In this document: piece by piece, positions 15,243 to 31,303 of the stretch
How positions within the stretch are numbered: position 1 is the first letter of the stretch
Layout of the letters: the number at the start of each line of letters is the position of its first letter
Source: Jatrophihabitans sp.
Lineage (GTDB): Bacteria; Actinomycetota; Actinomycetes; Mycobacteriales; Jatrophihabitantaceae
Length of the DNA: 64,000 nucleotides
Assembly (NCBI GenBank): GCA_036502295.1
Contig: DASXYU010000085.1
Span: 387-64,386, forward strand
Reading direction: 5' to 3'
Program-made: the position numbers and the translations under genes
Notes under the pieces: generated by a model
Databases searched by the model: none
Seen by the model: the letters and a program-made list of their open reading frames with translations, nothing else
What the model was told of the DNA's origin: nothing

Positions 15243-16403
15243 ATGACTGACACTTTCGCACTCGTTCAGGAGGACGAGGCTGAGTTGACCGCGTTCACCG
15301 AGCTGGTCCGGACATTCGTTGCCCGCGAAATCACGCCTCACCATGCTCAGTGGGAAGCCGACGGGATTGTCCCGCGGGAGCTGTGGCGCAAGGCCGGCGC
15401 CACCGGGCTATTGGGCCTCGGACTCCCGGCCGAGTACGGCGGAGGCGGCGCGAGCTATCGCTTCAATGCGGCTGTCGATGCCGAGCTCTACCGTTGCGGG
15501 GCCACCGGGCCAGGTTTCACGGTGCACAACGACGTCTGCGGGCCGTACTTCGCCGACCTGGCTACGCCCGAGCAGTTGCGGCGGTGGGTGCCGGGAATGA
15601 CATCCGGCGAGTTGATCGCGGCGATCGCGATGACCGAACCGGGCGCGGGAAGCGACCTGCGGGGTATCCGTACAAGCGCGTCGCGCATCGACGGCGGCTG
15701 GCTGCTGACAGGAGCCAAGACGTTCATTAGCAACGGCATCCACGCTGACCTAGTCATCGTCGTGGCGCGAACCGACGTCGAAGGCAAGGCCGGTCTGAGC
15801 TTGCTGGTTGCAGAACGCGGATCGGTTGGCTTCACGCGCGGCCGCAACCTCGACAAGGTCGGGCTTCACGCGCAGGACACCTCGGAGCTGACCTTCGACA
15901 ACGTCGAAGTCCCGGACGCGAACATCCTCGGCGAGCCGGGCAAAGGTCTGCACTACCTGATGGCGAACTTGGCGCAGGAGCGACTCACCATCGCTGTGCA
16001 GGCGGTCGCGGCGATGGAAGGCGTGTTGGAGGAGACGCTCGACTACGTCAAGAGCAGGACGGCCTTCGGCGCGCCGATCGGCCATTTCCAGCACAACGCG
16101 TTCCTGCTGGCTGAGCTGGCGACGTCGGTCAAGGCGGCGCGCGTCTTTGTCGACTGGGGTGTGGACCAGCACGTTGCCGGTCTGCTCGGTGCCGACACCG
16201 CCGCCATGATGAAGCTGCATGCCAGCGAAGCGCAGCAGCACATCGTGGATCGGTGCCTACAGCTGCATGGCGGTTACGGCTACACCACTGAATACCGGGT
16301 GGGCCGGGCGTGGGCCGACGCCCGCGTGCAGACGATCTATGGCGGCACGAGCGAGATGATGAAGCTCATCATCAGCCGAAGCCTGGGGTTGCACGGCGCA
16401 TGA
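15243..16403 (+). CDS. Acyl-CoA dehydrogenase
   Basis: ACAD three-domain pattern (AMTEPGAGSDL, ...QTIYGGTSEMMKLIISRSLGL). GGAGG RBS present. Confidence 0.92.
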   Translation: MTDTFALVQEDEAELTAFTELVRTFVAREITPHHAQWEADGIVPRELWRKAGATGLLGLGLPAEYGGGGASYRFNAAVDAELYRCGATGPGFTVHNDVCGPYFADLATPEQLRRWVPGMTSGELIAAIAMTEPGAGSDLRGIRTSASRIDGGWLLTGAKTFISNGIHADLVIVVARTDVEGKAGLSLLVAERGSVGFTRGRNLDKVGLHAQDTSELTFDNVEVPDANILGEPGKGLHYLMANLAQERLTIAVQAVAAMEGVLEETLDYVKSRTAFGAPIGHFQHNAFLLAELATSVKAARVFVDWGVDQHVAGLLGADTAAMMKLHASEAQQHIVDRCLQLHGGYGYTTEYRVGRAWADARVQTIYGGTSEMMKLIISRSLGLHGA

Positions 16404-16460: not shown

Positions 16461-18089
16461 TTACGCCGGCACCGGCGACTTGCTGAAGGTGAACCCCGGG
16501 AATCCGGAGTCAACCTCCTTGCCCACCTCGGCGCGATAGGCGGCCAGCCCACCGAGGTAGCACAGCGTGCTTGCCTTCTTGCCGGGGACGTTGGCTCCGA
16601 GGAACCAAGGCCGGTCTCCCATGCCCTGTGGCAGGAGGGTGGCCGCCAGGATCGCGTCGCACATGTCCGACCAGGTCTGGGCAGCCTCCTCAGTTGCTTC
16701 TACCCGCTCCGCGTCGTCCTCTAGTGCGCGCCCCAGCAGCTTGCCGATCAGCTCGACCTGCGTCTCGATCACCGGCGGGTGGCTCGCGAAGGGTGCCTGT
16801 GGACCGAGGATCGCGAAGAGGTTCGGGAAGCCCGGAGATGCCAGGCCGAACAGCGCCTTCGCGTCATGCGTCCATTGGTCGGCGATCGTGCGATCGCCGA
16901 CACCGTGGACGTTCATCTGCGCCAACGGACCGGTAATCGCATCGAAGCCGGTCGCATAGATGATCACGTCGAACTCGTACTTGGCCGTCCCCGTCCGTAG
17001 GCCGGTCGGGGTGACCTCCTGGATCGGGTCCTCACGGACGCTGACCAGTGTCACGTTCGGCCGGTTGTAGGTCTCGTAATAGAAGTTGCCGAGCGGAGGC
17101 CGCTTACCGCCGATCGGGTGCGTCGTCGGAGACAGTAATTCGGCGGTCGCAGGATCCTTGACAATCGCGCGGATCTTGCGGCGGACGAACTCTGACGCTG
17201 CATCGTTGACCCGCTGGTCGACGAGCATGTCGTCGAAGGTCTCAAAGATGTAGTGGAAGCCACCGGCCTCCCATCCGGCTTCAAGTACGCGTTCCAGCTC
17301 CGCGTCGTCGACCTCTGCACCGAGGCGATTCGCCGGCTCCATCGGAAAGGCAAAGACATGATTGAACGTCTTCTCCCAGACGTTCTCGAAGTCACGGCGG
17401 AGCGCTTGCTGCTGTTCTGGGCTCAGGGCGTGATTGCGCCCAGGCAGCGCGTAGTTCGGGGTGCGCTGGAAGACCGTCAAGTGCTCCGCGACCTGCCCTA
17501 CCGACTGAATTACTTGTATGCCGGTAGCGCCAGTGCCGATGACCGCCACGCGCTTGCCCGCGAAGTCGACCGGTTCCTTCGGCCACTGCGAAGTCACATA
17601 TGACTCGCCCTGGAATGTGTCGGCCCCCGGAAATGGTGGCTTGTATGCGATACCCAGCCAGCCGAGGCCGGTGATGAGCCACCGACTGGTTACTTGCAGC
17701 CCGTCTTCAGTGGTCACGGTCCAGCGGTTGGTTGCGTCGTCGAAATAGGCACCGTTGACCCGGGTGGAGAACCGGATGTCCTTGCGCATGTCGTGCTTGT
17801 CCGCCACGGCCTGCAGGTACTTCAGAACTTCGGGCTGGGCGGTGTAGCGCTCGCGGAAGTCCCATTGCTGCCATAGCTCGCGGTCGAACGAGAAGCAGTA
17901 CGCCCAGCTCTCGGTGTCGGTGCGGGCTCCCGGATACCGGTTCCAATACCAGGTGCCTCCGACGTCGGTGCCGGCCTCGAAGACCTGCAGGCTCAAGTCG
18001 AGCTGCCGCAGGAGATGAATGGTGCGGAGCCCTGCGAAGCCTGCGCCGACGACGACGACATCGACTTCCCGGAGTATTTGCGTAGGCAT
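16461..18089 (-). CDS. Baeyer-Villiger (type I flavin-containing) monooxygenase
   Basis: FAD motif VVVVGAGFAGL, BVMO long motif GGTWYWNRYPGARTD, NADP motif VAVIGTGATGIQ. AAAGGA RBS upstream of ATG 18089. Confidence 0.9.
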   Translation of the reverse strand: MPTQILREVDVVVVGAGFAGLRTIHLLRQLDLSLQVFEAGTDVGGTWYWNRYPGARTDTESWAYCFSFDRELWQQWDFRERYTAQPEVLKYLQAVADKHDMRKDIRFSTRVNGAYFDDATNRWTVTTEDGLQVTSRWLITGLGWLGIAYKPPFPGADTFQGESYVTSQWPKEPVDFAGKRVAVIGTGATGIQVIQSVGQVAEHLTVFQRTPNYALPGRNHALSPEQQQALRRDFENVWEKTFNHVFAFPMEPANRLGAEVDDAELERVLEAGWEAGGFHYIFETFDDMLVDQRVNDAASEFVRRKIRAIVKDPATAELLSPTTHPIGGKRPPLGNFYYETYNRPNVTLVSVREDPIQEVTPTGLRTGTAKYEFDVIIYATGFDAITGPLAQMNVHGVGDRTIADQWTHDAKALFGLASPGFPNLFAILGPQAPFASHPPVIETQVELIGKLLGRALEDDAERVEATEEAAQTWSDMCDAILAATLLPQGMGDRPWFLGANVPGKKASTLCYLGGLAAYRAEVGKEVDSGFPGFTFSKSPVPA

Positions 18090-18172
18090 ACGCGCATGTC
18101 CTTTCGTGTTATTGATGATCGCTAGGTAATGCCCGACTGAGGGCAGCCGCGGAATCTGCGGAGTGAGGGATG

Positions 18173-18733
18173 TCAGCCTGCGGGCTGGATGTCCAAGATC
18201 ACGTAGGCGAGAGTCGCCGGGACCTTCCCGTGGTTGCGCCAACCGTGCCGGGCGCCGTTCTGCACCACGCAGGTGCCCGGAGGCAGGTGGACCTCGGCTC
18301 CGTTGTCGAGCTCTACCCAGAGGTCGCCCTCGAGGACGATGACGTAGTCGATGGTCTTCGTCTGGTGCATGCCGGGGGCGTCAGGTTCGAATGCGCCGAG
18401 CAACCCAGGGACCTTCGCCTCGGCTTCGGCGACTAACGGCTCAAGGACCGCCGGATTCGGGGCGGGTTCGTCTGACTCATGGCCGTTGTCGGGCTCTGGC
18501 GGCAACCGAAACAAGCCGAAGCGCGTTCCGCCAGGCCCGGGAAAGAAGGTCGCGTTGTCAGGCTTCGGGTCGGTGACGGGGCTGCTCAGCGGCCCTTCGG
18601 TACCCCAGACCTGGAACATCTGGACGCCGGGCATGATGGCGAGCTCGACCGGGGGCAGCAGTTCGTCTTCGTAGGCGATGGAGGCGCCGGCGCCGTCGAC
18701 GCCGGTCACGACACGCTTGATGGAAATCGTCAT
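18173..18733 (-). CDS. Cupin-domain protein
   Basis: C-terminal cupin barrel (DYVIVLEGDLWVELDNGAEVHLPPGTCVVQNGARHGWRN). The start is uncertain because there is no clear RBS. The longer ORF to 18904 would overlap the divergent P450 start. Confidence 0.7.
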   Translation of the reverse strand: MTISIKRVVTGVDGAGASIAYEDELLPPVELAIMPGVQMFQVWGTEGPLSSPVTDPKPDNATFFPGPGGTRFGLFRLPPEPDNGHESDEPAPNPAVLEPLVAEAEAKVPGLLGAFEPDAPGMHQTKTIDYVIVLEGDLWVELDNGAEVHLPPGTCVVQNGARHGWRNHGKVPATLAYVILDIQPAG

Positions 18734-18881
18734 GGCGGGAACTGTGACATGGCTCGCACTCGAGCGGGAGTCGCGGCCGGGCAAGAGATTTGTGCGCGGC
18801 TCCAGATTGTGTGGCTCGAGGCCGTCGAGATGTGCACCGAGGACGTGCCATTGTCGCGGTTTCCGAGACTTGGAGAATTCG

Positions 18882-20108
18882 ATGTCGACGACGTATGACC
18901 CCACCGACCTGGCGCAACTGCGCGACCCCTACGCGATATTTGCGCAGATGCGTGCTGATGGTGGCGTGCATTGGTGTGAGCCGATTTCAGGCTGGATCGC
19001 GCTGGACTGGGCCAGTGTGCAGGCCGTGGTTGCAACACCGGCGGTGTTCTCCGCCAATCGGTTGTTGCCGGTCCACGAGCGGCTGTCGGAGGAGAAGCGT
19101 GCTTCGGCTGCGGACGTATTGCGCTGGTTGTCGCTGTGGATGGTCTTCCAGGACCCGCCGAACCACACCCGACTGCGCCGCTATCTGTCCACGGTGATCA
19201 ATCCGCGCATGGTCGAGTCGTTGCGGACCTCGATCACTGAGATCACCTCGGATCTGTTCGTCGGCCTACCGAAGGACCAGCCTGTCGACTTCTTCACCGA
19301 CGTTGCACTGACCCTGCCGGGTTACGTCGTAATGGATCTGCTCGGCGTGCCCCGCGACCGACTCGCTGAAGTCAAGCAGTGGTCCGACGAGATGATGCTC
19401 TTCATCGGCAGCTCGCGCGGCGTCGAGGATAAGTACGAGCGGGCCCGGCACGGCGCCTACTCCATGGCGGAACTATTCCGCCAACTCATCGATGAGCGCC
19501 GGGCGCATCCGCAGGAGGACGCCCTCACGCGGATGATCACTACCGAGATTGACGGCGAGACGCTCACCGAGGACGAGTTGATCGCGAGCATGATGATGAT
19601 AGGCAACGGCGCGCAGGACACCACCGCACACCTGTTGACCAACGGTTTGATCGCGTTGGACCAGCACCCGGAGGTCGCGGAGAAACTTGCTGCAGACCTC
19701 GACGGGCTCGTCGTCACCGCGGTGGATGAATTTCTTCGGTTCGACTCGCCGGTACTCTCCACAGGGCGTCTCCTGACGGCGGACACCGAGCTCGGTGGGC
19801 AGCGCCTCAAAGAGGGTGATCGGATCTTTGCGATGCTTGCGGCTGCCAACCGAGACCCTGCGGTCTTCGACTCTCCCGACGAGATCGTTCTCGAAGGCCG
19901 TCCGAACGGCCACCTCGCCTTCTCGAAAGGCGTGCATTTCTGTCTCGGTGCTCCGCTGGCCAGGCTCGAAGGGCAGATCGCGTTCAAGTACATGATCGAG
20001 CAGTTCCCCAAGCTGCAACTCGCCGAGTCGCTGGACTCGATTGCCTGGAACAACTCGCTGGTCAGCCGTGGCCCGATGCGACTGCCGGTTGTCCTTGGGG
20101 ACGCGTGA
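18882..20108 (+). CDS. Cytochrome P450
   Basis: Heme loop FSKGVHFCLGAPLARLE, I-helix GNGAQDTTAH, ExxR EFLRFD. GGAGA RBS 6 nt upstream of ATG 18882. Confidence 0.93.
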   Translation: MSTTYDPTDLAQLRDPYAIFAQMRADGGVHWCEPISGWIALDWASVQAVVATPAVFSANRLLPVHERLSEEKRASAADVLRWLSLWMVFQDPPNHTRLRRYLSTVINPRMVESLRTSITEITSDLFVGLPKDQPVDFFTDVALTLPGYVVMDLLGVPRDRLAEVKQWSDEMMLFIGSSRGVEDKYERARHGAYSMAELFRQLIDERRAHPQEDALTRMITTEIDGETLTEDELIASMMMIGNGAQDTTAHLLTNGLIALDQHPEVAEKLAADLDGLVVTAVDEFLRFDSPVLSTGRLLTADTELGGQRLKEGDRIFAMLAAANRDPAVFDSPDEIVLEGRPNGHLAFSKGVHFCLGAPLARLEGQIAFKYMIEQFPKLQLAESLDSIAWNNSLVSRGPMRLPVVLGDA

Positions 20109-21196
20109 ACGCTCCGTTAGTTGCGCGCGACGATGAGTTCGTCCATGCGAATCCCTACGCCGTCTCCCACCCGGCGTCGCCCGCCTCGAACGATCCGCGA
20201 TTCTTCGAGCGGTACTGGAATGTCTGGCACGACGACACGGGAGACCTGCTGCTAGCTGTGGGCGGCAGCTGCTATCCGGTGCTTGGCAGGGTCGAGTCGT
20301 ACGTGATCGTCAATTTTCGTGGCGAGCATCGCTCCGTTCGGTCCTATCGCCCGCTCTCGTCAGAGTCGGAGGACCTCGCAGTTGGGCCCGTGCGTCCTGT
20401 GATTCTCGAAGGGCTACGCCGGTGGCGTCACACTCTCGAGGACGGGGAGTGGGGGTTCTCTTACGACCTTGAGTGGGTCGATACCGCTCGCCCGACCTTT
20501 AGCGCCGCATGGGGGCCGGAGGTGGCGATCGGTGAGCGACAGGTGACCGCCGGCTTCGAGAGCTTCGGGCAGGTCACCGGTTCGATTCAGGTCGACGGCA
20601 CCCGTATCGAATGGGCGGCGGGTCAAGCACACGGCACTCGTGATCGCCACTGGGGTGTGGGCAGAGGGGTGGGTGGCCCTGCACTCAACGATGGCCGTGA
20701 GCACCGGCCGGGCTGGAAGGGCGGGATCTGGATCGACCTGCACGACGTCGGTCTCTGGGGCAGGAAGCTGCTCTATCGCCTCGATGATCCCCGTCCGGGC
20801 AGCGGATCGGTACGCGACGTGCAGCGGCGGCTGCGATTCGAACCGGAGACGCACCTGTTTCTGGAAGGAATCATTGAGCTGACCTTCGACGACGGCACCC
20901 ACCGCTCGCTGCACCTCGAGCGGCTGGGCAGCCAAATCGCTTTCATGCGCTGTGGCTTTTATGGCGGCACACCGGAGGAGGGGCTGCATCCCGGGGAGTA
21001 CAACGGCCCGCCGCGGACCGAGTGGGACCGATTCGACATCAGCGACCCGAAGGTCCGCCTCATGCTGCGAGGTCTGGACGAACACCACTGCCGTGTCACC
21101 GATGGCACGAGGACGACGACCGGCATCCTGCAACCGGTTGAGCCGGATGCATTCGAGGCTTGTCGCGAGGACCGTCCTGGCTGGGCTCTGTGGTGA
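20105..21196 (+). CDS. Conserved hypothetical protein (363 aa), translationally coupled to the P450
   Basis: GTG 20105 overlaps the P450 TGA (GTGA). Protein-like composition with a GTRDRHWGVG motif. I recognise no confident family. Confidence 0.7.
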   Translation: MNAPLVARDDEFVHANPYAVSHPASPASNDPRFFERYWNVWHDDTGDLLLAVGGSCYPVLGRVESYVIVNFRGEHRSVRSYRPLSSESEDLAVGPVRPVILEGLRRWRHTLEDGEWGFSYDLEWVDTARPTFSAAWGPEVAIGERQVTAGFESFGQVTGSIQVDGTRIEWAAGQAHGTRDRHWGVGRGVGGPALNDGREHRPGWKGGIWIDLHDVGLWGRKLLYRLDDPRPGSGSVRDVQRRLRFEPETHLFLEGIIELTFDDGTHRSLHLERLGSQIAFMRCGFYGGTPEEGLHPGEYNGPPRTEWDRFDISDPKVRLMLRGLDEHHCRVTDGTRTTTGILQPVEPDAFEACREDRPGWALW

Positions 21197-21313
21197 CTCT
21201 CTGCTTTGTACTGCCGGACAGAGACGGGTGTGACGCAGACCTCGTCATCGGCTTCGTTCGTAGTTACGGTCCATCCAGAGTGGGTCGAAAGACCCTGGAC
21301 CAGGAGATCACCC

Positions 21314-22882
21314 GTGAGCCTTAAGTACGACTTCTCGTTGATGTGTCCTGACGTGATTGCGCACAACGCACGAGTAAGTGCAGAGGCGATCGCTGTTGTC
21401 TTCGAGGACGAGCGGCTCACCTGGCGAGAGCTCGACGAACGGACGAACCGGTTCGCCAACATGCTCCGGGCAGAGGGACTCGACAAGGGCGACAAGGTTG
21501 CACTCTTCATCCCCGCCTCGTTGAACGCCTTCATCGCCTTTTGGGGCAGTGCCAAGGCCGGCTGCGTGACGGTGCCGTTGAACGTCATGCTCGACGGGGA
21601 GTCGCTGCTGCGTCTCGCGACCGACTCCGACTCGCTGGTCATGATCGCTGACGTGGAGACCGAGCCGATCCTCGATTCCATTCGTGCCCGGCTTCCGCAG
21701 ATCGAGGAGTCCCACTGGCTGACTTTCGGCGTGGCGCACGATCATTGGCGCTCGGTCGGGACTCTGCTGGCGAAAGCTCCCACGACGCCGTGCGCGGTGA
21801 AGATCCACCCGTCCGACATCATCACAATCCTCTATACCTCCGGTACCACTGGACACCCGAAGGGCATCGAGCACACGCACGTCAGCCGCATGATGTATCC
21901 GTACGGCTTCGCGATGGGCCTGAAGATCGATCGCTACTCGGTTGCCGTTCTCGGGACTCCGCCCTACGCCTCCGGCACTTGGATCACGATGATGCCGACC
22001 ATGTACCGCGGTGGCACCGTCGTCATTCTCCGGAAATTCACCGCCGAGGCGTTCCTCGCCGCCGTCGAGCGTGAGCGCGGTACCCATGCATTCCTCGTGC
22101 CGACGCAGTGGATCGCCATTCTTGAATACGCTGCGCTACGAAACCACGACGTGAGCAGCCTGCGCTGCATCGTCACCTCTGGTCAGCCGATCGCGGAGAA
22201 GACGTACCACGCGCTGGAGGAAGCTTTCCCGAACGCCGGCATCCACGAGGTTTACGGCTTCTCGGAGGGCTTCGCGACACTGCGACTGCCCGAAGACGCC
22301 GTCCACGGTAAACGCACCTCTGTCGGGAAACCGCTGATGTTGGAAGACATCCGCATCATCGACGAGAGCGGTGCTGAGCTGACCGCAGGGGAGAGTGGCG
22401 AGATCGTCGTGCATTCGATCGGCATGATGACCGGCTACTACAAGAACCCCGAACTGACCGACGAATCTACCTGGACCGCGCCAGACGGACGGGGATTCAT
22501 GCGCACCGGAGACATCGGTTCCTTGGACAAGGACGGCTTCCTCTACGTCTCCGGTCGACTCAAGGACATGATCAAGTCCGGCGGAATCAACATCTTCGCC
22601 GTTGACATCGAGCAGGTCTTCATGCACCACCCCGACGTCAGCGAGGCGGCAGCCATCGGCATACCGCATCTGAAGTGGGGTGAGACCCCCCTGGTGATCG
22701 TTATCCCGGTTCAAGGTGCCGACATCGATCCGGAAGAGCTCCGGCACTGGGCCAACGAGCGACTTGCCAAATATCAACGTGCCAGCCAGGTCATCGTTCG
22801 TACGGAGCTGCCGCGCGCGGTCTACGGCAAGGTCGCCAAGGCCGAGCTGCGCCAGGAGTTCGGTTGGGGAGTTGGCCTGTGA
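21314..22882 (+). CDS. Acyl-CoA synthetase / AMP-dependent ligase (FadD-like)
   Basis: AMP motif LYTSGTTGHPKG, and GDIGSLDKDGFLYVSGRLKDMIKSGG. AGGAGA RBS 7 nt upstream of GTG 21314. Confidence 0.92.
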   Translation: MSLKYDFSLMCPDVIAHNARVSAEAIAVVFEDERLTWRELDERTNRFANMLRAEGLDKGDKVALFIPASLNAFIAFWGSAKAGCVTVPLNVMLDGESLLRLATDSDSLVMIADVETEPILDSIRARLPQIEESHWLTFGVAHDHWRSVGTLLAKAPTTPCAVKIHPSDIITILYTSGTTGHPKGIEHTHVSRMMYPYGFAMGLKIDRYSVAVLGTPPYASGTWITMMPTMYRGGTVVILRKFTAEAFLAAVERERGTHAFLVPTQWIAILEYAALRNHDVSSLRCIVTSGQPIAEKTYHALEEAFPNAGIHEVYGFSEGFATLRLPEDAVHGKRTSVGKPLMLEDIRIIDESGAELTAGESGEIVVHSIGMMTGYYKNPELTDESTWTAPDGRGFMRTGDIGSLDKDGFLYVSGRLKDMIKSGGINIFAVDIEQVFMHHPDVSEAAAIGIPHLKWGETPLVIVIPVQGADIDPEELRHWANERLAKYQRASQVIVRTELPRAVYGKVAKAELRQEFGWGVGL

Positions 22883-23688
22883 CCGCGATCCGCTACCCCG
22901 ACTACGAGAGCCTTGAGCTGGACTGGCCTGAGCCGCACGTCCTTCGCGTGATGCTGAGCCGCGGCAAGATGAACTCGCTCGACTTCCAGATGCACCGTGA
23001 CCTCGGTTCGATCTGGCGCCTGATCGATGAGGATCCCGAAGTCTCGTCGGTCGTCCTGGGTGGCAAGGGACGCGCCTACAGCGCCGGTGGAGATTTCGAC
23101 ATGGTGCAGCGCATCATCGACGACTACGACTTCCGCTGCCAGATGTGGAAGGAAGGTCGAGCACTTGTGCAGAACATGCTCGACTGCGGCAAACCTATTG
23201 TGTCGGCGATAAGCGGAGCGGCAGCTGGCGGCGGCTTGGCCAGCGCACTCTTGGCCGATGTCAGCGTTGCCGGCCGTACGGCCAAGCTCGTCGACGGTCA
23301 CACCACCCTTGGCGTCGCTGCTGACGACCACGCCGTTGCGATTTGGCCGCTGCTGTGCGGACTGTCGAAGGCCAAGTACTACCTGATGACCAGCGATGCC
23401 ATCACGGGCGAGGAAGCCGAGCGCATCGGGCTGGTGACCTTCTGCGTCGAGGACGACTTGGTTGACAAGCGCGCGCTCGAGATCGCATCTCGGCTCGCCC
23501 ATGGGGCACCGAGCGCTATCCGGTGGACCAAGCAATCGCTCAACAACTGGGTTCGCGCCGCATGGCCGTCCTTCGAAGCCTCGCTAGCGTTCGGGATTCT
23601 CGGCTTTACCGGACCTGAGGCGGTCGAGGGGCTGGCAGCGCTACGTGAGAAGCGTCCCCCCAACTTTGCCCAGCGTTCCTACATCTGA
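22879..23688 (+). CDS. Enoyl-CoA hydratase/isomerase (crotonase family)
   Basis: The GTG start overlaps the upstream TGA (GTGA). Crotonase motifs YSAGGDFDMV and SAISGAAAGGG. Confidence 0.88.
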   Translation: MTAIRYPDYESLELDWPEPHVLRVMLSRGKMNSLDFQMHRDLGSIWRLIDEDPEVSSVVLGGKGRAYSAGGDFDMVQRIIDDYDFRCQMWKEGRALVQNMLDCGKPIVSAISGAAAGGGLASALLADVSVAGRTAKLVDGHTTLGVAADDHAVAIWPLLCGLSKAKYYLMTSDAITGEEAERIGLVTFCVEDDLVDKRALEIASRLAHGAPSAIRWTKQSLNNWVRAAWPSFEASLAFGILGFTGPEAVEGLAALREKRPPNFAQRSYI

Positions 23689-23700
23689 AAGTGAGCTGAC

Positions 23701-24507
23701 ATGCCCGATACAGCGGTGGTCCCGCCGACGCGACCGACCCTGGCCCTCAACGAGCGCACCTACATCGTCACCGGCGGCGGTGGCGGCATCGGCGGCGCGG
23801 CGGTCGCCAGGTTGCTGCGCGTCGGTTCGAACGTTGTCGCGGTCGACCTGAGTTCGCGCCGCCTCAACGGCACCGCCGAGGCCACGCGTGAGCTGCCGGG
23901 AGCGTTGCGGACGATCAAGGCCGACATCACCACAGAGGCCGGCGTTCAGGAGGCGGTCGACTTCGCGGTAACCGAGTTTGGCTCGGTACAGGGTGTGGCC
24001 AACGTCGCTGGCGGCATGGTCAACATCAACCGCGAGGTCTACGACGTGCCGCTGGAGTCCATCTCGCTGGACGACTTCGTCCAGATGTACGCGCTCAACG
24101 TGAACAGCGCCTTCCTCATGTGCCGAGCGCTGGAGAAGCACTTCATTGCGCAGGGCTACGGGAAGATCGTCAACGTGGCTTCGCTGGCCGCCTTCGCCAA
24201 CCGTCTTGAGCTTGGCAACGCCGCGTACAACTCTGCCAAGGCAGCGGTGATCGCCTTCACCCAGAGCGTGAGCATGCAGCTGGGGCGGCAGGGCGTACGC
24301 GCCAACTGCATCGCCCCCGGCCTCGTGCTCAGCGACCGTGTGCGCGAATGGATCGACGAGGGCTACCGAGACCGGCATCTCGCCTACACCGCACTCGGCG
24401 ACCTGCCCCGTCCCGAAGACCTCGGCGAAGGCATCGCGTTCTTCCTTGAACCCCAGTCCGACGCCGTCACTGGTGAGACCTTGCGAGTCGCTGCCGGAGT
24501 CCGATGA
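23701..24507 (+). CDS. SDR-family oxidoreductase
   Basis: VTGGGGGIGGAA, NVAG, catalytic YNSAKAAVIAFT. Confidence 0.9.
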   Translation: MPDTAVVPPTRPTLALNERTYIVTGGGGGIGGAAVARLLRVGSNVVAVDLSSRRLNGTAEATRELPGALRTIKADITTEAGVQEAVDFAVTEFGSVQGVANVAGGMVNINREVYDVPLESISLDDFVQMYALNVNSAFLMCRALEKHFIAQGYGKIVNVASLAAFANRLELGNAAYNSAKAAVIAFTQSVSMQLGRQGVRANCIAPGLVLSDRVREWIDEGYRDRHLAYTALGDLPRPEDLGEGIAFFLEPQSDAVTGETLRVAAGVR

Positions 24508-25514
24508 CCCCGTCTGTTCCGTCGAGTAACGCGGCGGCCGACTTGGCTGGCCGCGTTCAGGAGCTGCTGCGCCTGCGCCTGCCGCAAGCCCTTGACGTGA
24601 CCGTCTCCGAACCGGTGCGGGTGTTTGGCGGCAATGCCCGCATTGCATGGGCCTGTGATGCCTGCTGGACCTCAGCCGGAGACAACGATAAGCACGAGGA
24701 GCCGCTGATCCTGCTCATTCGAGCTGCCGGCTCGCAGGTTCAGACCGATCCCACCCGTGAGTTCTCGGCACTGGACGGTCTCGCCGAACGCGGCGTGCGT
24801 GCGCCCAGGGTGTGGGCGCACGACCCGGACGGACAACTGTTCGGAGCCCCCGCGGTGCTGCTGCAGCGGCTACCGGGACACACGGACGCCGTGGAGTACC
24901 TGTCGGCCGACTCCGAGCTGGGCCGGGCCCGCACACTGGATCTGGCCCGGGCGGCAGCCGAGCTGCACGCCGTTGAGCCCATCGCGCAATCGGAGCAACC
25001 GCAACTGGCGTACTGGCGGGCAGGATTCGAGGAGAGCCGTCTCGAGCCGCACCCGGCGCTGTCCTGGTTGTTCGACTGGCTCGAGGACAATGCAAGGCCG
25101 CCCGCGCGACGCGCGCTGGTGCACGGTGACTTCCGGCCCGGCAACGTCCTCTACGAAGGTGACCGCATCGTGGGGCTGCTGGATTGGGAGATGGCGCATG
25201 TCGGTGACCCGATCGAGGATCTGGCATGGGCCTATCACTCGCTGTGGAGCCCGGAGCGGTTCGTGCCGATCGCGGAGTTCGTCGGCGCGTACGAAGGGGC
25301 CGGAGGTATACCGGTCACCGAGGCGGCGTTGCGCTGGAACCGAGTCTTCTGCGAGGTGAAGTACGCCACGATCAGCCTGCAGGCAGCCCGAGCGGTCATC
25401 GATGGGCGCAGTCACAACCTGCGGTTGATCGACCGGGCCCGGAGCGTGATTCCCTCCATCCAGGTATGTCTGGAGTGGGTCGCAGCGAAGAAGCCACTGG
25501 AAGCCTCATGTTGA
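24504..25514 (+). CDS. Phosphotransferase-family (APH/ChoK-like) kinase
   Basis: ATGA overlap with the SDR gene. Catalytic loop HGDFRPGNVLY and LDWEMAHVGDPIEDLAW. Confidence 0.88.
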   Translation: MTPSVPSSNAAADLAGRVQELLRLRLPQALDVTVSEPVRVFGGNARIAWACDACWTSAGDNDKHEEPLILLIRAAGSQVQTDPTREFSALDGLAERGVRAPRVWAHDPDGQLFGAPAVLLQRLPGHTDAVEYLSADSELGRARTLDLARAAAELHAVEPIAQSEQPQLAYWRAGFEESRLEPHPALSWLFDWLEDNARPPARRALVHGDFRPGNVLYEGDRIVGLLDWEMAHVGDPIEDLAWAYHSLWSPERFVPIAEFVGAYEGAGGIPVTEAALRWNRVFCEVKYATISLQAARAVIDGRSHNLRLIDRARSVIPSIQVCLEWVAAKKPLEASC

Positions 25515-25975
25515 GGCCTACCCCGGGCGAGCTACTCGATGGACTCCGCCGCGAGCTTCGTGACGAGGTTCTGCCTTCTGTGCAGGGCGGCGCCGCGACG
25601 CGCCAGTTACGCGCTGCCATTCACATCCTCGGAAAACTTGCCGAGACGTGGGATGTGCAACATCGCTACGCGGAGACGGACAACCTGGACCTCGAGGTCA
25701 CACTGACCAACTTGGCACGCCTCGCCAATGTGGAGCGCACCAAACAGCCTTCGCTGCTGCAAGAGGCCGTACCAGGTGTCACGGACCGCGGGCTAAGCGA
25801 TCTCATCGCCCGCAACGAATCGCTACAACAGGAGCTCGAGCTGCTGCAGAGTCAGCACCGCGCCGCTGGACAAGCAGATGGCGAGTTCGGCCGAGCGCTC
25901 TTCGATCTACACGTGCGCCGGACGAACCGGGCAGCGAATGCCACAGGAATGAGCCATGACCCACGAAGCTCGTGA
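25508..25975 (+). CDS. Small hypothetical protein (155 aa) coupled to the kinase
   Basis: ATG 25508 overlaps the kinase stop (ATGTTGA). Helical, Leu/Glu/Arg-rich. No family recognised. Confidence 0.65.
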   Translation: MLRPTPGELLDGLRRELRDEVLPSVQGGAATRQLRAAIHILGKLAETWDVQHRYAETDNLDLEVTLTNLARLANVERTKQPSLLQEAVPGVTDRGLSDLIARNESLQQELELLQSQHRAAGQADGEFGRALFDLHVRRTNRAANATGMSHDPRSS

Positions 25976-26897
25976 CGTCGTAGTCACCAAACGGGTCCAG
26001 CACGCCCACGGTGTTGCCGGACTTACTCTCGCCGACCCCTCCGGCGCCGCCCTGCCTGAGTGGCAACCTGGTGCACATATCGACCTGATGCTGCCTGACG
26101 GCCGCGTCCGCCAGTACTCACTCTGCGGCAGCGACGGCGCCGCTTGGAACGTCGCGGTGCTCAATGCCCCGGATGGCCGCGGCGGCTCGGCATGGATCCA
26201 CGACAACATCCACGAAGGCGACGTGATTCGGATCCGTGGTCCACGAAACAAGTTTCCACTTGCGCCCGCACAGCGGTACGTCTTCATCGCTGGTGGCATT
26301 GGCATTACACCGATCATTGCCATGGTTCGCGAGCTGGAGCAGCGTGGTAACTCGAACTGGCGGCTCACCTACGGCGGCAGATCCCGCTCATCGATGGCGT
26401 TCCTCGACGAGCTCGAGGCGATGGGGGAGCAGGTAACCGTCACGCCGCAGGACGAGAGCGGACTCATCGACATCCAGGTCGCATTGGGACAACCGCAGAT
26501 CGGGACCGCGGTCTACTGCTGCGGTCCGGAGCCTCTGCTGCAGGCGATCGACCGGGCGTGCCGCTCCTGGCCACCGGGAACGTTGCACGTCGAGCGATTC
26601 ACTCCAGTGGAGATCGATACCGCCGGCGACTCGGCCTTCGAGGTGGTTGCCGAGCGATCCGGGATTACCCTGACCGTTCCGGCCAGCGTCAGTATCCTCG
26701 ATGCGCTCGCCGACCAGGGCGTCTACGTCGCCACCTCGTGCGGCGAAGGCGTCTGTGGCACGTGCGAAACCAAGGTGCTGGAAGGCGAGGTTGACCATCG
26801 AGACTCGCTGCTGAGCGAGCAGGAGCGCGCCGCCAACACAGTGATGATGGTGTGCTGCTCCCGCGCCCGCGGAGCACGTCTCGTCCTTGACGTCTGA
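25956..26897 (+). CDS. PDR/VanB-family oxidoreductase (flavin + NAD(P)H + C-terminal 2Fe-2S ferredoxin)
   Basis: RQYSLCG flavin motif, GGIGITP, and plant-type ferredoxin cluster CGEGVCGTCETKV...CCS. Confidence 0.9.
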   Translation: MTHEARDVVVTKRVQHAHGVAGLTLADPSGAALPEWQPGAHIDLMLPDGRVRQYSLCGSDGAAWNVAVLNAPDGRGGSAWIHDNIHEGDVIRIRGPRNKFPLAPAQRYVFIAGGIGITPIIAMVRELEQRGNSNWRLTYGGRSRSSMAFLDELEAMGEQVTVTPQDESGLIDIQVALGQPQIGTAVYCCGPEPLLQAIDRACRSWPPGTLHVERFTPVEIDTAGDSAFEVVAERSGITLTVPASVSILDALADQGVYVATSCGEGVCGTCETKVLEGEVDHRDSLLSEQERAANTVMMVCCSRARGARLVLDV

Positions 26898-26931: not shown

Positions 26932-27657
26932 TCAGCCCACGATTCGCCGAAGCAGTTCTTGCCCGTCGGTCAGATCGTCCAGCACGAGGTCTGCTCCGCA
27001 TGCGCCTAACGCTGCTGCGCTGAATCGTCCGGTCGCCACTAAGGCGCAACTGATGCCGAGCTCGTGGGCGCAGGCCGCGTCGCGCGGTGTGTCACCAACT
27101 ATCCAGCATTGTCGCGCGCCGCCGGGCCAGCCTGAATCGAGCAGGTGCTGAAGCGCGACCAACGCCGCTCCCACGCGGTGTGGGGCAGAGTCGCCGAAGC
27201 CGCCGAGGTCGGCGTCGAGGTGTGCTGACAGACCAGCTGCGTCGAGCTTGAGCCGTGCCACGGTCTCAATGTTCCCGGTGAGCACAGTCTGGACGACACC
27301 CCTCTGCTGCAGGCCCCGCACGACCTCCAGGACGCCATCCAGCGGGTGAATCGACGCGGCCACGAGCGTGCTGTTCACGTCTGCCAGGCGGGTGAACTCG
27401 CTGATCACTGTGGCAACCTGCGACTGACGACCGCCGGCAGATCTCACCAGCAGACTGGCGATCTCAGGGTCCATCCGACCGCCGAGATCAACGTCGTCGG
27501 GAATCGGCCGCCGCTCGCAGACGAGTTCGACAGCATCCAAGAAGAGTTCGGCGACTTGCCCTGCTGGTGCGAGCAGCGTGCCGTCGACATCCCATAGGAC
27601 GGCCGGTGACCCGCTCTGCGCAGTGACGACGCGCCTGCGCCAACCATCGAGATCCAA
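26932..27657 (-). CDS. HAD-family hydrolase
   Basis: Motif I VLWDVDGTL and motif IV VGDTPRD. The proposed TTG start 27657 has a GGAAGGA RBS. The Arg-rich extension to 27930 was rejected. Confidence 0.75.
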   Translation of the reverse strand: MDLDGWRRRVVTAQSGSPAVLWDVDGTLLAPAGQVAELFLDAVELVCERRPIPDDVDLGGRMDPEIASLLVRSAGGRQSQVATVISEFTRLADVNSTLVAASIHPLDGVLEVVRGLQQRGVVQTVLTGNIETVARLKLDAAGLSAHLDADLGGFGDSAPHRVGAALVALQHLLDSGWPGGARQCWIVGDTPRDAACAHELGISCALVATGRFSAAALGACGADLVLDDLTDGQELLRRIVG

Positions 27658-27923
27658 CGTTCCGTTCCTTCCGCCTACCTTCTTGGGCGCTGGTGCTGGC
27701 AATGCACCTGAGCTTCGTCCACGACGCTGTGATCGGACGCATCGCGTGTTTGTGCCTGACTCCAAGACACCAGACCAGGGTGGCTGTCCTCTGCCTCTGG
27801 CAGACGGTTTCATAGGCCCTGCAGTCGGCCGCGCCGAAGTCTTCGCGAGTCTGTCCCGTTCCGTCGCCATCTCTTCTCCGATTACCACGATCAACCGCCC
27901 GACACCTGATTGGAGACGCCGCG

Positions 27924-29135
27924 ATGTCAAACGACGCCTACATTTACGACGCGATCCGGACCCCGCGAGGCAAGGGCAAGAAAGGTGCGCTCTACGGGAC
28001 CAAGCCCGTCGATCTTGTCGTCGGGCTGGTCGCCGAGTTGCGTTCCCGCTTCCCGGGTCTGGATCCGTCCTACATAGACGACCTCGTCCTCGGCGTCGTC
28101 ACCCCGCTGGGTGACCAGGGCGGTGACATCGCGAAGGCAGCGGCACTGGCTGCCGGGCTGCCAGAGACCGTCGCGGGGCTGCAGGTCAACCGGTTCTGCG
28201 CCTCAGGGCTGGAGGCGACGAATATTGCCGCCGCCAAGGTCGCCTCAGGCTGGGACCGCCTGATCCTGGCAGGCGGTGTCGAGTCGATGTCCCGCGTTCC
28301 GATGTTTTCCGATGGCGGGCCGCTGTTCAACGATCCGGCCATCACGTATGACCATTACATCGCTCCGCAGGGAATCGGCGCGGATCTCATCGCCACCATC
28401 GAGGGCTTCACTCGCGAGGACGTAGATCGTTACGCCATTCTGTCGCAGCAGCGGGCCGACACGGCCTGGCGCGAAGGCCGCTTCAAGCGCTCGGTGGTTC
28501 CGGTAGTGGATGGCAACGGTGTCACGATCCTTGACTACGACGAGCATCGCCGGCCCGAGTCGACCGTCGAGTCGCTGGGCAGTCTGCGTCCATCATTCGC
28601 AGAGCCCGGCCGCAGCCTCGGGTACGACGCAGTGGCGCTACAGAAATACCACTGGATCGAGCAGATCGAGCACGTCCACACCGGCGGCAACTCCTCCGGC
28701 ATCGTCGACGGTGCGGCGCTCGTCCTGCTCGGCTCCGAGGAGGCGGGCCGGGACCTAGGCCTGCAGCCTCGCGGTCGCATCGTCGCCACCGCCATCACCG
28801 GTTCCGATCCGACGATCATGCTCACCGGGCCTGAGCCGGCAACCCGCAAAGCACTTGCGACCGCAGGACTCGAACTCGATGACATCGACCTGTTCGAGAT
28901 CAACGAAGCATTCGCTTCTGTCGTCCTCAAGTGGATCAAGGACCTCCGCCTGCCCACGGAGAAGGTCAACATCAATGGCGGCGCCATCGCGATGGGGCAT
29001 CCGCTCGGCGCAACCGGCGCCATGCTCGTCTCCACCGTCCTTGACGAACTCGAGCGGCGCGAGGCGCGGCGGGGGCTCATCACCCTCTGCGTCGGCGGCG
29101 GCATGGGAATCGCCACCATCATCGAACGCCTCTAG
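27924..29135 (+). CDS. fadA: Acetyl-CoA C-acyltransferase (thiolase)
   Basis: Active-site [42 protein letters not shown] present. Confidence 0.93.
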
Positions 29136-29161: not shown

Positions 29162-31303
29162 ATGACCACCACCATCCGATGGAATATCGACGCGGACGGC
29201 ATCGTCACCCTCACCTTGGACGACCCGAACGCCACGGCGAACACCATGACGCAGCAGTTCGTCGTCGATCTGACCGACACAGTCAACCGCCTTTACGTCG
29301 AGAGAGAGAGCGTCATCGGCGTGGTCCTCACCTCGGCGAAGAAGACATTCTTCGCCGGCGGTGACCTCCATGAGTTGGTCGAACTCCAGCCCGAGGACGC
29401 GCCACGGTTCACCGAACATCTGAACCATGTGAAGAGCCAGTTGCGCGCCTTGGAGACGCTCGGCAGACCCGTGGTGTCCGCGATCAATGGTGCCGCTCTC
29501 GGCGGGGGACTCGAACTCGCCCTAGCGACCCACCATCGCCTCGCCGCCGACGTGGCGGGCAACCAGATCGGGCTGCCCGAAGTTGGGCTCGGCTTGCTGC
29601 CGGCCGGCGGCGGCATCGTCCGCACGAGCCGGCTACTCGGCGTCACCACTGCTGTGGAGCGGGTGCTGTCGTCGGGGACTCGGTACACCCCGCGTGCTGC
29701 ACTGAAACTCGGTCTGGTCGATGAGGTCCTCGCGGATTCATCGACCCTGATAACGCGAGCCAAGGAGTGGATTTTCGCCAACCCCGACGCGGCGCAGCCT
29801 TGGGACACGCCCGGGTACACCATTCCCGGCGGAACACCCACTCGTGGCCCGCTGTCGGCGCAGGTCAGCCACCTCTCCGCCACGCTACGCAGCCAAACCA
29901 ACGGAGCACCCGCACCAGCCGAGCGGGCGATTCTCGCTGCAGCGGTTGAAGGGGCAGCAGTGGACATCGACACCGCCGAGCTCATCGAGACGCGCTACTT
30001 CATCGGTTTGGCGACTGGGCAGATCGCCAAGAATCGCATCAACCTGACCTTCTTCGATGCCCAGCGCATCAAGGCGGGCGGAAGTCGGCCAACTGGCCAG
30101 TCGCGGTTTCGCTCCAGCAGACTCGGCGTCGTCGGCGCGGGCATGATGGGTGCCGGCATCGCCTACGCCGCCGCGCGAGCCGGCATCGAGGTCGTTCTCG
30201 TCGACGTGTCCTTGTCAGCAGCGCAGATGGGCAAGCAGTACGCCGAGCGAGCTGAAGCCAAGGCGGTGGAGACCGGCCGCTCGAGCGCGAATTCCGCAGA
30301 CTTGGTGCTGTCCCGCATTCGTCCAACGGACGATATGGCGAATCTTACCGCGGTCGATTTCGTGATCGAAGCGGTCTTCGAGAACGCCGAACTCAAGGCC
30401 AAGGTCTTCGGGCAGATCGAGACCTCCGTCGCCGAGACCGCAGTCCTCGGCTCGAACACTTCCACCCTTCCCATCACCGTGCTCGCCGCTGCCGTCAGCA
30501 GACCCGCGGACTTCGTGGGCGTGCACTTCTTCTCCCCAGCCGACCGCATGCCACTCGTTGAACTCATCAGGGGCAAGCAAACGTCGCAGGCCGCACTCGC
30601 CAAGGCATACGACCTGGTCCTCCAACTTGGCAAGACTCCGATCGTCGTCAACGACAGTCGCGGGTTCTTCACCAGCCGAGTGATCACGGCCCGCCTGAAC
30701 GAAGCCGTAGGGATGCTCGGCGAAGGCGTGAACCCCGTCAGCATCGAGCAGGCATCGCTGCAGGCCGGCTACCCTACTGGGACGCTCCAGCTGCTCGACG
30801 AGCTCACTCTTACCCTCCCGCGCACGATCAGAGAAAAAGCCGAAGCAGCAGCAACGGTCGACGGCCGCGTTTGGGCTTCGCATCCGAGCGAAGCAGCGTT
30901 CGACCGTCTCATTGACGGCTACGGGCGGGTGGGGCGTGCGGCAGGCAGCGGTCTCTACGACTACGTCGACGGCAAGCGAAAGGCCCTTTGGTCCGGACTG
31001 GCCGAATGCTTCCCGCCCGCGGCTGTGCAGCCCCCGTTCACCGACCTGATTGACCGGCTACTGTTCGCCGAGGCACTCGAGGCGTGGCGCGTTTATGACG
31101 CCGGCGTGATCGAGTCCGCCGCCGACGCCAATGTCGGCTCTCATTTGGGCATCGGCTTCCCGGCATGGACCGGCGGCGCGCTGCGTTACATCGACCAATA
31201 CCCCGGTGGTCGTGGGCGCTTTGTTGAACGCTCCAGAGAACTTGCCGAGAGGTACGGGGCGCATTTCACGCCATCGCCCTCAATGTTGGCAACGGCAGGC
31301 TAA
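29162..31303 (+). CDS. fadB: Multifunctional enoyl-CoA hydratase / 3-hydroxyacyl-CoA dehydrogenase
   Basis: N-terminal crotonase (FFAGGDL, AINGAALGGG) plus NAD-binding VGVVGAGMMGAGIA and 3HCDH C-terminal domains. Confidence 0.93.
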   Translation: MTTTIRWNIDADGIVTLTLDDPNATANTMTQQFVVDLTDTVNRLYVERESVIGVVLTSAKKTFFAGGDLHELVELQPEDAPRFTEHLNHVKSQLRALETLGRPVVSAINGAALGGGLELALATHHRLAADVAGNQIGLPEVGLGLLPAGGGIVRTSRLLGVTTAVERVLSSGTRYTPRAALKLGLVDEVLADSSTLITRAKEWIFANPDAAQPWDTPGYTIPGGTPTRGPLSAQVSHLSATLRSQTNGAPAPAERAILAAAVEGAAVDIDTAELIETRYFIGLATGQIAKNRINLTFFDAQRIKAGGSRPTGQSRFRSSRLGVVGAGMMGAGIAYAAARAGIEVVLVDVSLSAAQMGKQYAERAEAKAVETGRSSANSADLVLSRIRPTDDMANLTAVDFVIEAVFENAELKAKVFGQIETSVAETAVLGSNTSTLPITVLAAAVSRPADFVGVHFFSPADRMPLVELIRGKQTSQAALAKAYDLVLQLGKTPIVVNDSRGFFTSRVITARLNEAVGMLGEGVNPVSIEQASLQAGYPTGTLQLLDELTLTLPRTIREKAEAAATVDGRVWASHPSEAAFDRLIDGYGRVGRAAGSGLYDYVDGKRKALWSGLAECFPPAAVQPPFTDLIDRLLFAEALEAWRVYDAGVIESAADANVGSHLGIGFPAWTGGALRYIDQYPGGRGRFVERSRELAERYGAHFTPSPSMLATAG

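Follow-up and report, generated by a model that had tools for sequence, protein, structure and literature searches.

The stretch of DNA analysed here, referred to below as the window, comprises 64,000 nucleotides of contig DASXYU010000085.1 from Jatrophihabitans sp. Its central part carries a run of eight genes on the forward strand, and the subject of this analysis is a set of three among them, encoding an APH-family kinase, a small helical protein and a homologue of 25-phosphosteroid lyase (25-PSL). The run opens with a cytochrome P450 gene (18678–20108; PF00067), followed by the gene of a 363-aa protein of the Rv3169 family (20105–21196; NCBIfam NF053593), which is the 25-PSL homologue. The next genes encode an AMP-forming acyl-CoA synthetase of 522 aa (21314–22882; PF00501 and PF13193), an EchA15-like enzyme of the crotonase family, either a hydratase or a double-bond isomerase (22879–23688; PF00378, PRK07327), and a short-chain dehydrogenase/reductase, SDR (23701–24507; PF00106 and PF13561). 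Then come the APH-family small-molecule kinase (24504–25514; PF01636, 2.9e-28) and its 155-aa helical partner, remotely similar to DUF6285 and matching no Pfam or NCBIfam model (25508–25975). The last gene (25956–26897; PF00175 and PF00111) encodes a reductase of the PDR/VanB type, with an FNR-type flavin domain and a 2Fe-2S domain.

The original prediction for this locus, made from the sequence and its open reading frames (ORFs), had described the five genes from the synthetase to the 155-aa ORF as a coupled module similar to the levulinate operon lvaABCDE. Pfam and NCBIfam scans find the ligase, crotonase, SDR, kinase and small ORF exactly where it had placed them, and the overlaps that it reported are seen in the sequence: GTGA between the ligase and crotonase genes, ATGA between the SDR and kinase genes, and ATGTTGA between the kinase gene and the small ORF. 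The neighbours on which it relied are also there, namely an acyl-CoA dehydrogenase (ACAD) gene at 15243–16403, a Baeyer-Villiger monooxygenase (BVMO) gene at 16461–18242, the P450 gene and two genes similar to methylacyl-CoA racemase (MCR). The junction between the crotonase and SDR genes, read from the sequence, is a gap of 12 nt. Two genes had been left out, the 363-aa gene and the reductase gene. The start of the former overlaps the P450 stop codon in GTGA, and the latter overlaps the small gene by 20 nt. As the five-gene run is extended at both ends, by the P450 and 363-aa genes on one side and by the reductase gene on the other, we treat the whole as one eight-gene operon, 18678–26897.

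The 363-aa protein scores 227.9 bits with the NF053593 model, the cutoff being 150, over residues 5–344, whereas a Pfam scan finds no domain in it. The AlphaFold2 model, built on 35 homologues, has a mainly-beta fold with pLDDT 91.8 and pTM 0.90. The top five matches of this model in a Foldseek search of the PDB are all 25-PSL (entries 9fzn, 9g2i and 9g4c; E 2e-21 to 1e-20), superimposed over the full length with TM-scores of 0.71–0.74, about 365 aligned columns and 22–23% identity. The next folds, those of the fungal Diels-Alderases Fsa2, Phm7 and CghA and of kievitone hydratase, follow at TM about 0.4 and E 1e-5 to 1e-8. A sequence profile of the Rv3169 family, compared with the PDB, detects the 25-PSL entries at E 3e-32, all other matches having an E of 0.5 or more. 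The product of 20105–21196 is a homologue of 25-PSL and probably the phosphate-eliminating enzyme of the module. Its RDRHWG motif, in which D180 is invariant in the 35 homologues, aligns to RDRSWG of 25-PSL. The product-complex entry 9g4c reads RNRSWG at this place, and since Asn replaces Asp in this product-bound structure, we infer that the motif Asp may be the catalytic residue. The three 25-PSL structures were released in the PDB in January 2026. No paper on the solved 25-PSL was found in our literature search, and one accompanying the 2026 entries may already discuss such homologues. Clustered at 50% identity, the lyase superfamily comprises 1266 clusters with a threshold of E 1e-3 and 640 with one of 1e-10.

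Two metagenomic members of this superfamily, P0379 and P0406 (797 aa), are single polypeptides in which a 25-PSL-like domain (residues 423–776) is joined to the C-terminal side of a P450 domain. The fusion mirrors the GTGA-coupled P450–lyase gene pair of the window. It may possibly be a frameshift artefact, with only two members known, on contigs of about 4.7 kb, and it is given little weight here.

The catalytic motifs of the kinase are intact: H207-G-D209, N214 and D227-W-E are invariant in 16 homologues. The profile of the kinase family, compared with the PDB, retrieves 3dxp (9e-28), 9o56 (8e-27), Rv3168 (3ats, 3e-20) and the kinase domain of ACAD11 (4e-20), and, more weakly, 9fsg (4e-16) and macrolide kinases (MphH, 4e-15). 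By these similarities the kinase can be placed in the ACAD10/11-N and Rv3168 neighbourhood of the APH superfamily. With an ACAD-linked kinase of Thermus it shares 32% identity. The entry 9fsg, a 379-aa "APH-like protein", may be the 25-hydroxysteroid kinase (25-HSK), to judge by its name, its length and the neighbouring PDB codes. A role in antibiotic resistance was considered for the window kinase and rejected because of the gene context and the weak similarity to Mph and APH(3') enzymes.

The small protein matches nothing in Pfam, in NCBIfam, among PDB sequences or in a Foldseek search of the PDB. Its AlphaFold2 model consists of four helices (pLDDT 86), and the N-terminus, MLRPTPGELL...VLP, is invariant in its homologues. 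Aligned by hhalign, the family of the small protein matches a Thermus DUF6285 protein with a probability of 86.9% and E 4e-6 over the first 60 residues. An iterative profile started from the small protein reaches the Thermus DUF6285 protein at 4e-5 and then at 2e-11, and it also reaches 63 of the 78 small ORFs that directly follow the kinase gene in related loci. The Pfam model of DUF6285 itself, PF19802, was tried on 15 family members and matched none, even with the E limit relaxed to 10. The profiles thus suggest a remote homology to DUF6285 rather than membership in this family. The DUF6285 partners in Thermus and Azospirillum have 116–137 aa and match the Pfam model, whereas the window protein has 155 aa and does not. 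In 78 of the 83 loci examined, the kinase gene is followed by a small ORF of about 75–180 aa whose start lies between about 80 nt upstream and 200 nt downstream of the kinase stop codon; most frequently this ORF overlaps the stop by a few bases. Between Actinobacteria and Proteobacteria the 155-aa protein retains 38–49% identity and the 363-aa protein 49–68%, hence both are real genes.

The genomic linkage of the kinase was studied in a scan of one genome per species, with the alignment of the kinase family as the query; the counts below refer to the 80 loci with the closest kinase relatives among the matches listed. In 40 of these loci the kinase gene has a lyase-like gene at a distance of 3 kb or less, and in 32 of the 40 this distance is 200 bp or less. 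An ACAD gene is found within 3 kb in nine loci, and none has both. When the count is restricted to loci flanked on both sides by 3 kb or more, 50 in number, the lyase-like gene is present in 27 and the ACAD gene in six. In the neighbour-joining tree, all members of the window kinase clade with enough flanking sequence have a lyase-like gene within 10 kb, the exception being locus L031, while the ACAD-linked kinases fall in other groups. In this kinase clade it is the Rv3169-family gene, not an ACAD gene, that constantly accompanies the kinase.

The order lyase–kinase–small ORF also occurs without the ligase, crotonase, SDR, P450 and BVMO genes, in the Alphaproteobacteria, Acidimicrobiales, Hyphomicrobiales and Binataceae, and there this triad is often followed by a gene of a double-domain CoA-transferase III. 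In locus L043 the triad has two further neighbours, which encode an AMP-ligase and a TauD-type dioxygenase. Of the 80 loci, 18 have a P450 homologue at no more than 10 kb from the kinase gene, and in distant clades (L038, L051) the P450, kinase and small genes are contiguous. In the triad-only loci L043 (2119–12590), L011 (8320–13844), L008, L010 and L014, the CoA-transferase-III is a fused double protein of about 800 aa; together with the AMP-ligase and the dioxygenase of L043, these loci give a hint that hydroxylase, CoA activation and triad belong to a unit that recurs outside the cluster described here.

The complete set of genes is found in the same order in Nocardia nova (L001), Gordonia polyisoprenivorans (L004) and on plasmid pROB02 of Rhodococcus opacus B4 (L084). 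The same set, rearranged, is present on chromosome 3 of Paraburkholderia xenovorans LB400 (L003/L009), in Novosphingobium (L007, L012) and in a metagenome-assembled genome of the Spongiibacteraceae (L013). Since the same genes recur in N. nova, Gordonia, R. opacus and the others, the gene run is more than chance. The crotonase is the most conserved product of the module, with 88% identity in N. nova and 70–73% in the proteobacteria; the values for the SDR are 81% and 55–62%, respectively. The P450 is 74% identical to its counterpart in N. nova and 51% to that in LB400, and the identity of the reductase across the related loci is 51–66%.

The crotonase matches PRK07327 of NCBIfam at 380.7 bits (cutoff 292) and mycobacterial EchA15 structures at E 3e-89. 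The nearest solved relatives of the ligase are FadD13 and feruloyl-CoA synthetase; its GTG start codon is preceded by GGAG, and the length of 522 aa agrees with the gene call in N. nova. The best PDB relatives of the P450 are PksS, TamI, CYP267B1, a reconstructed CYP125 ancestor and vitamin D3 25-hydroxylase, with E 1e-57 to 1e-62. The P450, the BVMO, the ligase and the crotonase have generic solved relatives only. By sequence, the P450 is the probable hydroxylase of the pathway and the reductase its probable electron donor; the R. opacus homologue of the latter is annotated as PDR/VanB family.

The levulinate operon lvaABCDE of Pseudomonas putida (Rand et al. 2017), as far as it is described in PMC6692424, PMC11342911 and PMC12440821, resembles the window operon in having a ligase, an SDR, an APH-type kinase and a small protein accompanying the kinase. 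Both a ligase and an SDR are indeed present in the operon, and by analogy phosphorylation followed by elimination could bring a hydroxyacyl-CoA into beta-oxidation in either system. The P450, the reductase, the BVMO, the crotonase and the MCR-like enzymes are additions of the window. The crucial difference is in the eliminating enzyme. LvaC-type ACADs are defined by a catalytic Asp and an Arg/His phosphate pocket, and among the ACADs LvaC is closest to ACAD10/11 (PMC12440821, PMC11342911), in which the catalytic Asp, D753, is situated near the C-terminus (PMC12440821). The window ACAD at 15243–16403 is closest to the Geobacillus ACAD 2pg0 (3e-106) and to human LCAD (7e-103), and the list of its 60 best PDB matches does not include ACAD11. 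At the position of the catalytic Glu376 of MCAD, which we take to be equivalent to that of D753 of ACAD10/11, it has Gly, in the sequence IYGGT. As a positive control, we used the ACAD encoded beside the APH–DUF6285 pair on plasmid pTB1 of Thermus brockianus: it matches ACAD11 at about 1e-63, second only to 4hr3, and is 27% identical to the window ACAD. There is no second ACAD gene in the 64-kb window, and none within 10 kb of the kinase gene in the orthologous clusters of N. nova and Gordonia. By its sequence, the window ACAD appears to be a conventional beta-oxidation accessory of the LCAD/IVD type, not an LvaC-like enzyme.

The equivalence of this ACAD with LvaC, on which the original prediction was built, is thus contradicted by its LCAD-type similarity, by the Gly at the Glu site and by its absence from the N. 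nova and Gordonia clusters. Since the defining ACAD is absent, the module is not of the lva type; a 25-PSL-type lyase occupies its place. What remains of the lva-type interpretation is the logic of phosphorylation followed by elimination within a P450/BVMO pathway, with the lyase-like gene rather than the ACAD gene as the candidate for the second step. The statement that the kinase has a small partner stands, the latter being a translationally coupled ORF remotely related to the DUF6285 proteins of lva-like operons. The kinase does belong to a broad APH clade, together with the ACAD11 kinase domain, 3dxp and Rv3168. The expected co-occurrence of kinase, small protein and ACAD is true for the small partner, present almost everywhere, and fails for the ACAD, given its nine listed loci against 40 with the lyase-like gene.

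In mammalian ACAD10 and ACAD11 (8v3u, 8v3v; PMC12440821, PMC11342911) the kinase acts first and phosphate elimination follows, an order that we would expect here by analogy. However, there the kinase is fused to the special ACAD with the catalytic Asp and the Arg/His pocket, a type that is missing from the window. Mammalian ACAD11-type kinases phosphorylate 4-hydroxyacyl-CoA (PMC12440821). Bacterial operons closer to this scheme were found on pTB1 of T. brockianus (L085, 4850–7959) and on a plasmid of Azospirillum ramasamyi (L086, 2960–7115), where the gene order is ACAD (ACAD11-like)–APH–DUF6285–histidine phosphatase. The SDR gene is adjacent upstream in Azospirillum; in Thermus it is further upstream and on the opposite strand. 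The lva cluster of P. citronellolis has a histidine phosphatase as well (PMC6692424). These operons are likely the bacterial counterpart of the lva and ACAD10/11 systems, with DUF6285 as the LvaB-like partner. They share with the window a kinase gene followed by an overlapping small helical ORF, and differ from it in the ACAD11-like eliminating enzyme and in the histidine phosphatase downstream.

The operon is embedded in a larger catabolic block. The type I BVMO gene (16461–18242, reverse strand) is divergent from the operon; its product matches the structures of cyclohexanone and phenylacetone monooxygenases at E 1e-137 to 1e-149, and it is kept in all close loci with 46–74% identity. The gene of the LCAD/IVD-type ACAD (15243–16403, forward strand), classified by its PDB sequence matches, has a counterpart in the LB400 and R. 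opacus clusters. A family-III CoA-transferase/MCR-like protein is encoded at 13927–15099 on the reverse strand (PF02515, 5.8e-70), with identities of 65% in N. nova and 48–49% in LB400. The second protein of this family (6479–7618, reverse strand; PF02515, 9.3e-76) is encoded at the edge of a region of lower G+C content; double-domain CoA-transferases related to it come after the lyase–kinase–small ORF triad in several other phyla. The gene at 12023–14014 on the forward strand encodes a protein with a GAF domain and a PucR-type helix-turn-helix domain (Pfam GAF, GGDEF_2, HTH_30); in N. nova and Gordonia a homologue is found at the corresponding position (65% and 50%, respectively), and its domains make it the probable regulator of the cluster. 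Downstream of the operon, Pfam identifies a thiolase (27924–29135, forward strand) and a FadB-type hydratase/3-hydroxyacyl-CoA dehydrogenase (29162–31303, forward strand), which would form the beta-oxidation end of the pathway; the homologues in the LB400 cluster are 55% and 40% identical, respectively. An ABC transporter is also encoded around the operon. Directly after the operon, on the opposite strand, is the gene of a HAD-family hydrolase (26932–27930). ACAD10 carries a HAD domain. The hydrolase was considered as a part of the module and rejected, as it has no counterpart in any related locus.

The G+C content of the catabolic block, window positions 6000–32000, is 0.63–0.655, compared with 0.67–0.71 in both flanks. 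Elsewhere in the window, the scanned ORFs proved to be housekeeping genes, among them hemE and those of a hemY-like oxidase and a LigD domain. Because of this lower G+C content, and because the R. opacus B4 orthologue on pROB02 is situated beside IS3 and ISL3 transposases, a group II intron and integrases, the block looks like a horizontally mobile catabolic island.

Taken with its neighbours (BVMO, CoA-transferase-III/MCR-like proteins, ACAD, thiolase, FadB), the operon points to an aerobic pathway in which a carboxylic acid is degraded as its CoA thioester; this acid would probably be methyl-branched or alicyclic, that is, terpenoid-like. Within this pathway we consider it rather probable that the kinase and the lyase together perform an ATP-dependent dehydration. 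From the gene content, overlaps, homologies and co-occurrence observed, we infer the following catalytic steps, along with the identity of the substrate and its state as a CoA ester when it reaches the kinase. The acid would be activated by the ligase or by the CoA-transferases. The kinase with its small partner would then phosphorylate a hydroxyl group that ordinary beta-oxidation enzymes can neither oxidise nor eliminate, and the Rv3169-family lyase would remove the phosphate, leaving a C=C bond. This alkene could be hydrated or isomerised by the EchA15-like crotonase, and the ACAD, FadB, thiolase and MCR-like enzymes would complete the degradation. A CoA ester as the substrate of the kinase is favoured because the profiles link the small partner to the DUF6285 proteins of ACAD11-type operons.

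The hydroxyl group itself would most plausibly come from an oxygenase, either introduced by the co-translated P450 or exposed after cleavage of an ester or lactone made by the BVMO, and it would probably be carried by a tertiary or otherwise non-oxidisable carbon. By established chemistry, a BVMO that inserts oxygen on the more substituted side of a ketone could, once the ester is cleaved, set free a tertiary alcohol. We favour an oxygenase because the P450 and lyase genes are coupled, because the P450, kinase and small genes are contiguous in L038 and L051, and because P450 genes occur in 18 of the 80 listed loci and a TauD gene in L043. A less likely source would be the SDR, making a 4-hydroxyl group from a 4-oxoacyl-CoA. 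As speculation that does not enter our assessment, the substrate might be 3-(1-hydroxy-1-methylethyl)-6-oxoheptanoyl-CoA derived from cineole or terpineol, abscisic acid, or oxo-acids derived from rubber. The literature was also searched for such a combination of genes, for clusters of abscisic-acid catabolism and for tertiary-alcohol or terpene clusters, and nothing relevant came up.

Several points weigh against an ATP-dependent dehydration. The members of the kinase/lyase clade seem to be known from their sequences alone. Identity to 25-PSL is 22–23%, so the substrate and even the type of reaction could differ. In its sequence, the kinase does not approach 9fsg more closely than it does ACAD11, 3dxp or Rv3168, so that its similarity does not choose between the models. 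In Sterolibacterium the substrate is a free steroid, and no candidate lyase has been reported next to the kinase gene (PMC8449060); hence tight linkage is not a trait of the characterised system. Further, an aerobe equipped with a P450 could often oxidise its substrate without a dehydration that costs ATP, and the physiological need for the latter is unexplained. Finally, the model leaves the position of the hydroxyl group and the role of the SDR undefined.

An lva-like route that dispenses with LvaC would assign a role to every core gene: the ligase would form a 4-oxoacyl-CoA, the SDR would reduce it to 4-hydroxyacyl-CoA in the manner of LvaD, the kinase and its partner would make 4-phosphoacyl-CoA in the manner of LvaA/LvaB, the 25-PSL-like lyase would release 3-enoyl-CoA, and the crotonase would act as a delta3-delta2 isomerase. 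The five genes from the ligase to the small ORF are contiguous, coupled and conserved across phyla, the pair of kinase and small partner is common to ACAD11-type operons, and oxo and hydroxy acids are obtainable by BVMO and P450 chemistry. On the other hand, many genomes have the triad without an adjacent SDR or crotonase gene, the sole characterised lyase of the family acts on a tertiary phosphate (PMC8449060; PDB 9fzn), and the recurrent adjacency of hydroxylase and kinase suggests a hydroxyl group installed by an oxygenase. The regiochemistry is beyond what a sequence can decide. We consider this route, which retains the substrate class of the original prediction and exchanges the eliminating enzyme, unlikely, yet the main alternative. 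The variant in which the ACAD at 15243–16403 takes the part of LvaC and removes the phosphate from 4-phosphoacyl-CoA is the least probable of all the readings considered. Its parts (ligase, SDR, APH kinase, small protein) are similar at first glance, the ACAD gene is only 5 kb away, and the kinase profile does reach the ACAD11 kinase domain; but the ACAD differs from ACAD11 in all the respects given above, while the control ACAD from an APH–DUF6285 operon matches ACAD11 readily, the window has no other ACAD to offer, the N. nova and Gordonia clusters do without one, and a gene on the opposite strand separates the ACAD gene from the operon.

Two other readings concern the lyase-like protein. 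If it did not act in sequence with the kinase, it might be a hydratase, cyclase or isomerase working on an isoprenoid double bond, and the kinase might serve detoxification or produce some phospho-metabolite. The Foldseek matches to kievitone hydratase and to Fsa2/Phm7/CghA, the label "tocopherol cyclase" carried by one orthologue in UniRef and the low identity to 25-PSL are consistent with this. However, the TM-scores for those folds are about 0.4 versus 0.72–0.74 for 25-PSL, the sequence profile detects 25-PSL only, and the adjacency of the kinase and lyase genes across many phyla, to the exclusion of an ACAD partner, would be hard to account for if they shared no intermediate; we regard this reading as improbable. 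Still less probable is an aerobic degradation of a steroid side chain, in which a sterol or secosteroid would be hydroxylated at C25 by the P450 and turned into the delta-24 alkene by the kinase and lyase. It would agree with the homology of the lyase to 25-PSL and with the presence of vitamin D3 25-hydroxylase and the CYP125 ancestor among the PDB relatives of the P450 (about 1e-57 to 1e-60), but polyketide-tailoring P450s match the window P450 equally well or better. Moreover, a scan of the window ORFs, which was not exhaustive, found no steroid ring-degradation genes, the cluster is centred on a CoA ligase, a BVMO and MCR-like enzymes, and aerobes normally oxidise C26 directly.

The closest mechanistic precedent for a kinase/lyase dehydration comes from the anaerobic degradation of cholesterol by Sterolibacterium denitrificans. 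There 25-HSK, a 43-kDa APH-like kinase, forms a tertiary phosphoester that is then eliminated to an alkene, 25-PSL being mentioned as an unknown or putative partner of the kinase (PMC8449060, PMC11061730). By analogy, both systems would pair an APH-type kinase with a dedicated phosphate lyase and spend ATP on the dehydration of an unactivated alcohol to an alkene. The lyase-like protein of the window shares the fold, sequence similarity and the RDRxWG motif with 25-PSL, and a hydroxylase precedes the kinase in both pathways. It is a molybdenum enzyme in Sterolibacterium and a P450 in the window. The genes of the window kinase, its small helical partner and the lyase are linked, and they stand among genes for a CoA ligase, a BVMO and beta-oxidation enzymes in aerobes, unlike those of the anaerobic steroid degradation. 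As no steroid context is seen among the genes scanned, this is not the steroid pathway, which counts against the same pathway but not against the same mechanism.

The second comparison is with Mycobacterium tuberculosis, where Rv3168 (an APH protein, PDB 3ats) and Rv3169 form one operon repressed by Rv3167c (PMC5340868). The same two families, an APH kinase and an Rv3169-family protein, thus meet in one operon under a local repressor. The difference is that Rv3168 has been discussed as an aminoglycoside kinase; the analogy with the window suggests for the Rv3168–Rv3169 pair a metabolic kinase/lyase role rather than antibiotic resistance.

What is new in the locus is a cassette of kinase, partner and lyase genes inside an aerobic P450/BVMO island of acyl-CoA catabolism, which is also present on Rhodococcus plasmids. 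The cassette appears to be a lyase-based alternative to the ACAD-based solution of the lva and ACAD10/11 systems. Tentatively, and with somewhat more doubt than confidence, we may generalise this as follows. The kinase and its DUF6285-like partner would be a general hydroxyl-activating cassette, paired either with a flavoenzyme of the ACAD10/11/LvaC type or with an unrelated beta-sandwich lyase of the 25-PSL type. In the window, the lyase version would act with the P450 and use O2 and ATP to drive a desaturation, or dehydration, of an acyl-CoA at an unactivated carbon, opening a blocked (tertiary or branched) position in aerobic catabolism of the terpenoid type, and the same pair would explain Rv3168–Rv3169.

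So far, a kinase and a phosphate lyase that together dehydrate an unactivated alcohol at the expense of ATP have been described in a single anaerobic degrader of steroids. If the module works in the same way, this chemistry is widespread and occurs in aerobes, on catabolic plasmids of Rhodococcus and next to P450 and BVMO genes. The Rv3169 family, named in NCBIfam without a function, and Rv3168 thereby gain a function that can be tested, and the lva/ACAD10/11-type and 25-PSL-type systems are suggested to be two solutions built on the same pair of kinase and partner. For annotation, an APH kinase gene near an ACAD gene should not be called lva-like until the type of the ACAD has been checked.

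Two minor observations concern the kinase genes. The NCBI call for the window kinase yields 323 aa, with the start at 24543, 13 codons downstream of the ATG at 24504. The longer variant gives the ATGA overlap with the SDR gene, as it also does in N. nova, so the true start may lie upstream of the deposited one. In Gordonia, locus L004 contains a second, divergent pair of lyase-like and APH genes (12765–14893, reverse strand), whose products are each 29% identical to the respective window proteins. This pair is situated 1–3 kb downstream of the main cluster, beside two crotonase genes and a 3-hydroxyacyl-CoA dehydrogenase gene.

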